This document shows, piece after piece, positions 15,399 to 15,438 of a DNA stretch of 64,000 nucleotides. The translations under genes were made by a program, and so were the position numbers. Source of the stretch: Escherichia coli O157:H7. GTDB lineage: Bacteria > Pseudomonadota > Gammaproteobacteria > Enterobacterales > Enterobacteriaceae. Location: NCBI RefSeq assembly GCF_013167455.1, contig NZ_CP038328.1, one strand, 5' to 3'. Positions within the stretch are counted from its first letter, which is position 1; each line of letters starts with the position of its first letter. Below the pieces are notes generated by a model. That model saw only the letters and a program-made list of their open reading frames with translations, was not told the origin of the DNA and ran no database searches.

Positions 15399-15438
15399 TA
15401 ATGGACGTCAATACATCTGGACATCTAAACTTCTTTGC
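15399..15438. promoter_or_regulatory. MetJ operator (tandem met boxes) in the metB/metJ divergent promoter region
   Basis: ggacgtca-atacatct-ggacatct-aaacttct, four to five tandem 8-bp met-box-like repeats between the divergent metB and metJ genes. Confidence 0.6.

Follow-up and report, generated by a model that had tools for sequence, protein, structure and literature searches.

Tandem met boxes at metB/metJ and metF of Escherichia coli O157:H7 match the known MetJ operators

MetJ is a ribbon-helix-helix homodimer with S-adenosylmethionine as its corepressor, and the operators considered here have been known since the 1980s. One S-adenosylmethionine-bound dimer sits on each 8-bp met box, and neighbouring dimers touch, which leads to cooperative binding along an array. 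The operators of Arc, Mnt and CopG resemble those of MetJ in that a beta-ribbon enters the major groove and dimers bind cooperatively on adjacent sites, whereas MetJ is distinguished by runs of two to five directly abutting 8-bp units and by its need for S-adenosylmethionine. Published work describes one MetJ homodimer per 8-bp box, a requirement for at least two adjacent boxes for repression, and a DNA affinity raised by S-adenosylmethionine (PMC2775130; PMC3228920). Met boxes have been reported at metJ, metB and metF in 122 of 122 Enterobacteriales (PMC3228920). The older literature counts five boxes in the metF operator (PMC3274233; bioRxiv 10.1101/254623), and the metF regulatory region has been examined by MetJ ChIP, with repression of metF by MetJ assayed against a delta-metJ strain (bioRxiv 10.1101/254623).

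The 64,000-nucleotide stretch of E. coli O157:H7 DNA analysed here (the window) carries, in the order of its RefSeq annotation, katG, metF, metL and metB on the minus strand, metJ and yiiX on the plus strand, a frameshifted IS1, an Rhs dsORF, an rhsC-like gene and, again on the minus strand, rpmE. This annotation was taken from the identical O157:H7 genome NZ_AP018488.1, with window coordinates equal to locus coordinates minus 4701, and RefSeq and Pfam agree that metJ is divergent from metF, metL and metB (Table 1). The MetJ encoded here matches the crystallised E. coli protein (PDB 1CMA/1CMB/1CMC) with 100% identity across residues 2-105. A preliminary description of the window had pointed to tandem 8-bp units resembling AGACGTCT in the metB/metJ region and upstream of metF, and such units are indeed present at both places. 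They are contiguous and spacer-free (four at metB/metJ; three, or classically five, at metF), both arrays lie in the promoter regions of methionine genes, metJ is encoded in the same genome, and orthologous arrays occur in other genera. Judged from sequence, the two arrays thus very probably (about 97%) represent the canonical MetJ operators belonging to the E. coli metJBLF cluster, carried in this case by an O157:H7 chromosome. Both operators are already known, down to the exact O157:H7 boxes.

Table 1 Features of the metJBLF cluster and other sites discussed (window coordinates; scores from the published met-box weight matrix)
Feature	Position	Strand	Basis and remarks
metF, methylenetetrahydrofolate reductase	10505..11395	-	RefSeq; Pfam PF02219; predicted to be repressed from the 11437-11476 operator
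metF-proximal met box GCACATCC	11437..11444		2.24 bits; weakened by an O157-lineage SNP at 11444
metF MetJ operator core, three contiguous met boxes ATCCGTTT AGACGTCC AGATGTAA	11445..11468		5.01, 10.35 and 5.09 bits, respectively
Putative metF promoter	11468..11496	-	-35 TTGACG (11496 to 11491), 17-bp spacer, -10 CATCTT (11473 to 11468)
Classical fifth metF met box AGATGAAG, ATG-distal	11469..11476		4/8 consensus matches; -7.65 bits; overlaps the putative -10 hexamer
WP_000660586.1, 44-aa lysine-rich hypothetical protein	11471-11605	+	Divergent from metF; ATG inside the fifth metF met box
metBL operon	11744..15339	-	RefSeq, Pfam; predicted to be repressed from the 15403-15434 operator
metL	11744-14176	-	RefSeq; Pfam AA_kinase + Homoserine_dh
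metB	14179-15339	-	RefSeq; Pfam Cys_Met_Meta_PP
Putative metB promoter	15383..15411	-	-35 TTGACG (15411 to 15406, inside box 1), 17-bp spacer, -10 TACTCT (15388 to 15383)
Shared metB/metJ MetJ operator, four contiguous met boxes GGACGTCA ATACATCT GGACATCT AAACTTCT	15403..15434		6.87, 8.57, 8.96 and 6.78 bits, respectively
metJ-facing sigma-70-like match TGGACA-18-TAGATT	15418-15447	+	Scan; -35 inside the boxes
Weak possible fifth metB/metJ unit TTGCGTAT	15435..15442		In register with the array; 4/8 consensus matches; -0.88 bits
metJ-facing sigma-70-like match TTGAGC-17-TAAAAT	15446-15474	+	Scan; downstream of the boxes
metJ, repressor binding met boxes, 105 aa	15616..15933	+	RefSeq; Pfam PF01340 MetJ, E = 7.6e-60
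Frameshifted IS1 transposase, Rhs dsORF fragment and 1,394-aa rhsC-like gene	16746-22014		Between yiiX and rpmE
Two-box met-box-like site AGACATTT AAACATTC	59244-59259		14.6 bits; AT-rich spacer between a carbohydrate porin gene and frvA

Two scoring schemes separated these arrays from the rest of the window. When matches to the 8-bp consensus were counted over runs of two to five boxes, the metB/metJ and metF arrays ranked as the top two in the 64 kb for three-, four- and five-box runs. The best register of the metB/metJ array gave 24 of 32 matches (28 of 40 with TTGCGTAT appended) and the classical five-box metF stretch, GCACATCC ATCCGTTT AGACGTCC AGATGTAA AGATGAAG, gave 25 of 40; no dinucleotide shuffle (0/300) attained the four- or five-box value of metB/metJ, and two (2/300) attained the five-box value of metF. 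For the second scheme we applied the weight matrix and decision rule of Augustus & Spicer 2011 (PMC3228920, Table 3), under which no box may score below one quarter of the consensus score (3.15 bits) and the boxes of a site must together reach the full consensus score (12.58 bits). This rule returned three sites in 64 kb, at 31.18 bits (metB/metJ), 20.45 bits (metF) and 14.6 bits (59244-59259), against a shuffle background of 0.59 sites per 64 kb. The weak unit TTGCGTAT falls below the per-box cut-off, and PMC3228920 does not include it among the boxes.

With these registers, the ranges given in the preliminary description can be refined. At metB/metJ, 15399-15438 encloses the four-box array with 4 bp to spare on each side. 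Upstream of metF, 11451-11473 takes in AGACGTCC, AGATGTAA and part of the fifth box, only about half of the five-box operator, and misses 11437-11452. Its expectation that a weight-matrix scan would score both arrays above background was borne out, with the metB/metJ total attained in 0 of 500 shuffles and the metF total in 2 of 500, and its identification of the units with the known MetJ operator arrangement agrees with their near-complete identity to the operators of K-12 and with the O157:H7 boxes tabulated in PMC3228920.

At metB/metJ, the O157 array is identical at all 32 of 32 positions to the K-12 metJ/metBL operator (MG1655 4128577-4128608), within an intergenic region of the same length (276 bp) and at the same distances from the start codons, 63 bp to the metB ATG and 181 bp to the metJ ATG. 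Nothing differs inside the array; the four SNPs that distinguish the metJ-metB spacer from that of MG1655 all lie outside the boxes, one of them (window 15393) in the spacer of the putative metB promoter. The metF operator is identical to its K-12 counterpart (MG1655 4132535-4132574) at 39 of 40 positions and occupies the same position relative to metF, with the three-box core 49 bp from the metF ATG and the array overall 41-49 bp from metF; one of two SNPs in the metL-metF spacer falls in a box (11444). Published tables list the same arrangement for O157:H7 EDL933, TW14359 and others, with four metJ/metB boxes (31.2 bits; gaps of 181 and 63 bp) and the same three metF boxes as here (20.47 bits; gap of 49 bp), and four metF boxes (24.95 bits; gap of 41 bp) for K-12 (PMC3228920 Table S1). 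In MetJ ChIP-exo on K-12 (Sastry et al. 2019, PMC6892915 Suppl. Table 2), peak MetJ-27 (intensity 105) falls within the metB/metJ array at 4128579, and peak MetJ-28 (intensity 98) falls at 4132531, 4 bp beyond the classical metF array; both intensities are among the highest of the rows listed. A further strong peak in that data set, MetJ-26 (intensity 119), lies within the metJ coding region (MG1655 4128305; window ~15706), where no met-box array was found under the peak (best two-box sum, -0.8 bits); an artefact of the tagged locus may account for it.

Arrays also occur at the orthologous positions in other genera. Yersinia pestis carries an identical metB/metJ 32-mer, Salmonella LT2 matches it at 31 of 32 positions, and Vibrio cholerae has four different boxes between metJ and metB with other spacing to the genes; each of these species also has three or four boxes upstream of metF (PMC3228920 Table S1), the Y. 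pestis metF array being shifted by one box. Within E. coli, a 351-bp piece around the metB/metJ site is present in 5,425 of 5,426 complete genomes, with 100% identity to many O157:H7 chromosomes, and the 44 bp around the array are mismatch-free in at least 5,050 of the 5,426. In an alignment of eight diverse E. coli strains, variable columns numbered 2 of 32 inside the array versus 20 of 244 outside it. The array is therefore not clearly more conserved than its flanks within E. coli, and only comparison across genera reveals selection on the boxes. On the metF side, two divergent E. coli strains lose gapless alignment upstream of about 11546 (11546-11617, towards metL) and remain nearly identical over the stretch that includes metF, the boxes and the -35 region; the conserved metF control region thus has its limit here.

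The positions of the boxes suggest how each array would act. The metB/metJ array is proposed to overlap the -35 region of the metB promoter as well as that of one or more metJ promoters, an overlap through which it would repress metBL and exert partial autoregulation on metJ. The metF array would overlap the -10/start region of metF and repress by excluding RNA polymerase. These overlaps at metB and metF are read from the sequence together with the literature: the putative metB promoter has a -10 with only 3/6 matches and was absent from the output of a simple sigma-70 scan, as was the putative metF promoter, relative to which the metF boxes would span about -15 to +25. This placement is consistent with the published overlap of the metF met boxes with the -10 region (bioRxiv 10.1101/254623). 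Three metJ promoters have been described, one of them not repressible (PMC3228920); the two metJ-facing matches in our scan are consistent with that number, including a non-repressible promoter, without proving it. The text of the PMC3415461 and PMC4782308 supplements yielded no experimental transcription starts for metB, metJ or metF. By analogy with the published systems, MetJ binding, S-adenosylmethionine dependence, cooperativity and promoter positions would carry over to the O157:H7 arrays.

Chance resemblance to AGACGTCT in AT-rich intergenic DNA, with no regulatory role, has next to no probability as an account of the two arrays. Weak sites do arise in this way: 73 of 500 shuffles attained the 14.6 bits of the two-box site at 59244-59259, which has no methionine gene near it and which we rejected as a MetJ operator on these grounds, and a lone perfect AGACGTCT inside katG (9612-9619) was likewise rejected as a single box with no neighbouring box. 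The two arrays are of another order, in that shuffles almost never attained their scores (none of the 500 contained any four-box site), both fall exactly in the promoter regions of methionine genes, and both match K-12 operators that carry ChIP-exo peaks and are conserved in Salmonella, Yersinia and Vibrio; the shuffle controls and the identity to experimentally occupied sites rule this reading out. It is also very improbable, if slightly less so, that the repeats are mainly promoter elements, or sites of another regulator such as MetR, and not MetJ sites. A -35-like TTGACG hexamer does lie inside box 1 of metB/metJ, yet operator-promoter overlap is the very way in which repression works and hence offers no alternative. 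Two perfect TGAAN5TTCA palindromes, a motif that we take to be the MetR consensus, flank the metF promoter, but they lie outside the met-box arrays, and it is to the arrays that the MetJ ChIP-exo peaks map.

Another possibility accepts both arrays as genuine operators and supposes that the O157:H7 metF operator has been weakened by the SNP at 11444 (MG1655 4132567), with less cooperative MetJ occupancy and higher metF expression when methionine is plentiful. The substitution, A to G on the metF strand, changes the first base of the metF-proximal box from GCACATCT (4.47 bits) in K-12 to GCACATCC, which falls below the published cut-off, so that the rule counts three metF boxes in O157 and four in K-12, where the total is 24.95 bits. 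Of 5,426 complete E. coli genomes, 295 carry the O157 allele and 3,790 the K-12 allele; among the matches listed, all serotype-labelled genomes with the O157 allele were O157. We regard the O157 allele as derived, given that A is retained at this position of the metF strand in K-12, Salmonella and Yersinia. Nonetheless, such a weakening is unlikely. Little or no functional effect of the SNP would be expected from the sequence, because G is the second most common base at that box position (135 of 832 half-boxes, PMC3228920) and because the remaining 20.45 bits equal the score of the functional metN operator, and exceed those of metC (18.9) and metK (15.0). Moreover, G also occupies the first position in two boxes of metB/metJ, the strongest operator, and the affected box lies at the edge of its array.

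Several other features were observed around the metF start. A second O157-lineage SNP relative to K-12, at 11391, changes metF codon 2 from AGC to AAC (S2N). Perfect TGAAN5TTCA palindromes number three in the 64 kb, and the two near metF lie at 11382-11394 and 11538-11550. The former, over the metF start codon, is created by the SNP at 11391 and is perfect in the O157 allele alone, K-12 having TGAGC; the latter is present in K-12 too. A speculative idea, to which we give slightly less credence than to weakening by the first SNP, is that the SNPs at 11444 and 11391 jointly adjust how metF is regulated in this pathogenic lineage, by weakening MetJ repression, by altering the action of MetR, or by doing both. 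The hypothetical protein WP_000660586.1 had no Pfam match and is annotated in several E. coli genomes, though absent from the MG1655 annotation; it is probably a spurious gene call.

In their own right, the arrays are an ordinary positive control of low significance, and their value is one of calibration, in that a degenerate tandem operator was recognisable from raw sequence. The preliminary description had placed them next to an Rhs insertion and regarded the regulatory architecture of the regulon as intact. The first point is correct: yiiX and rpmE, which are 60 bp apart in K-12, here flank an IS1 pseudogene and an Rhs element, so that this block represents an insertion relative to K-12. 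As to the second, the boxes and a wild-type metJ are in place as far as sequence can tell, with the qualification that the SNP at 11444 weakens one metF box. With yiiX in between, the insertion is clear of the met control regions and leaves the met cluster undisturbed. For this O157:H7 chromosome, the IS1/Rhs insertion has left the metJBLF control regions unchanged apart from four spacer SNPs between metJ and metB and two between metL and metF.
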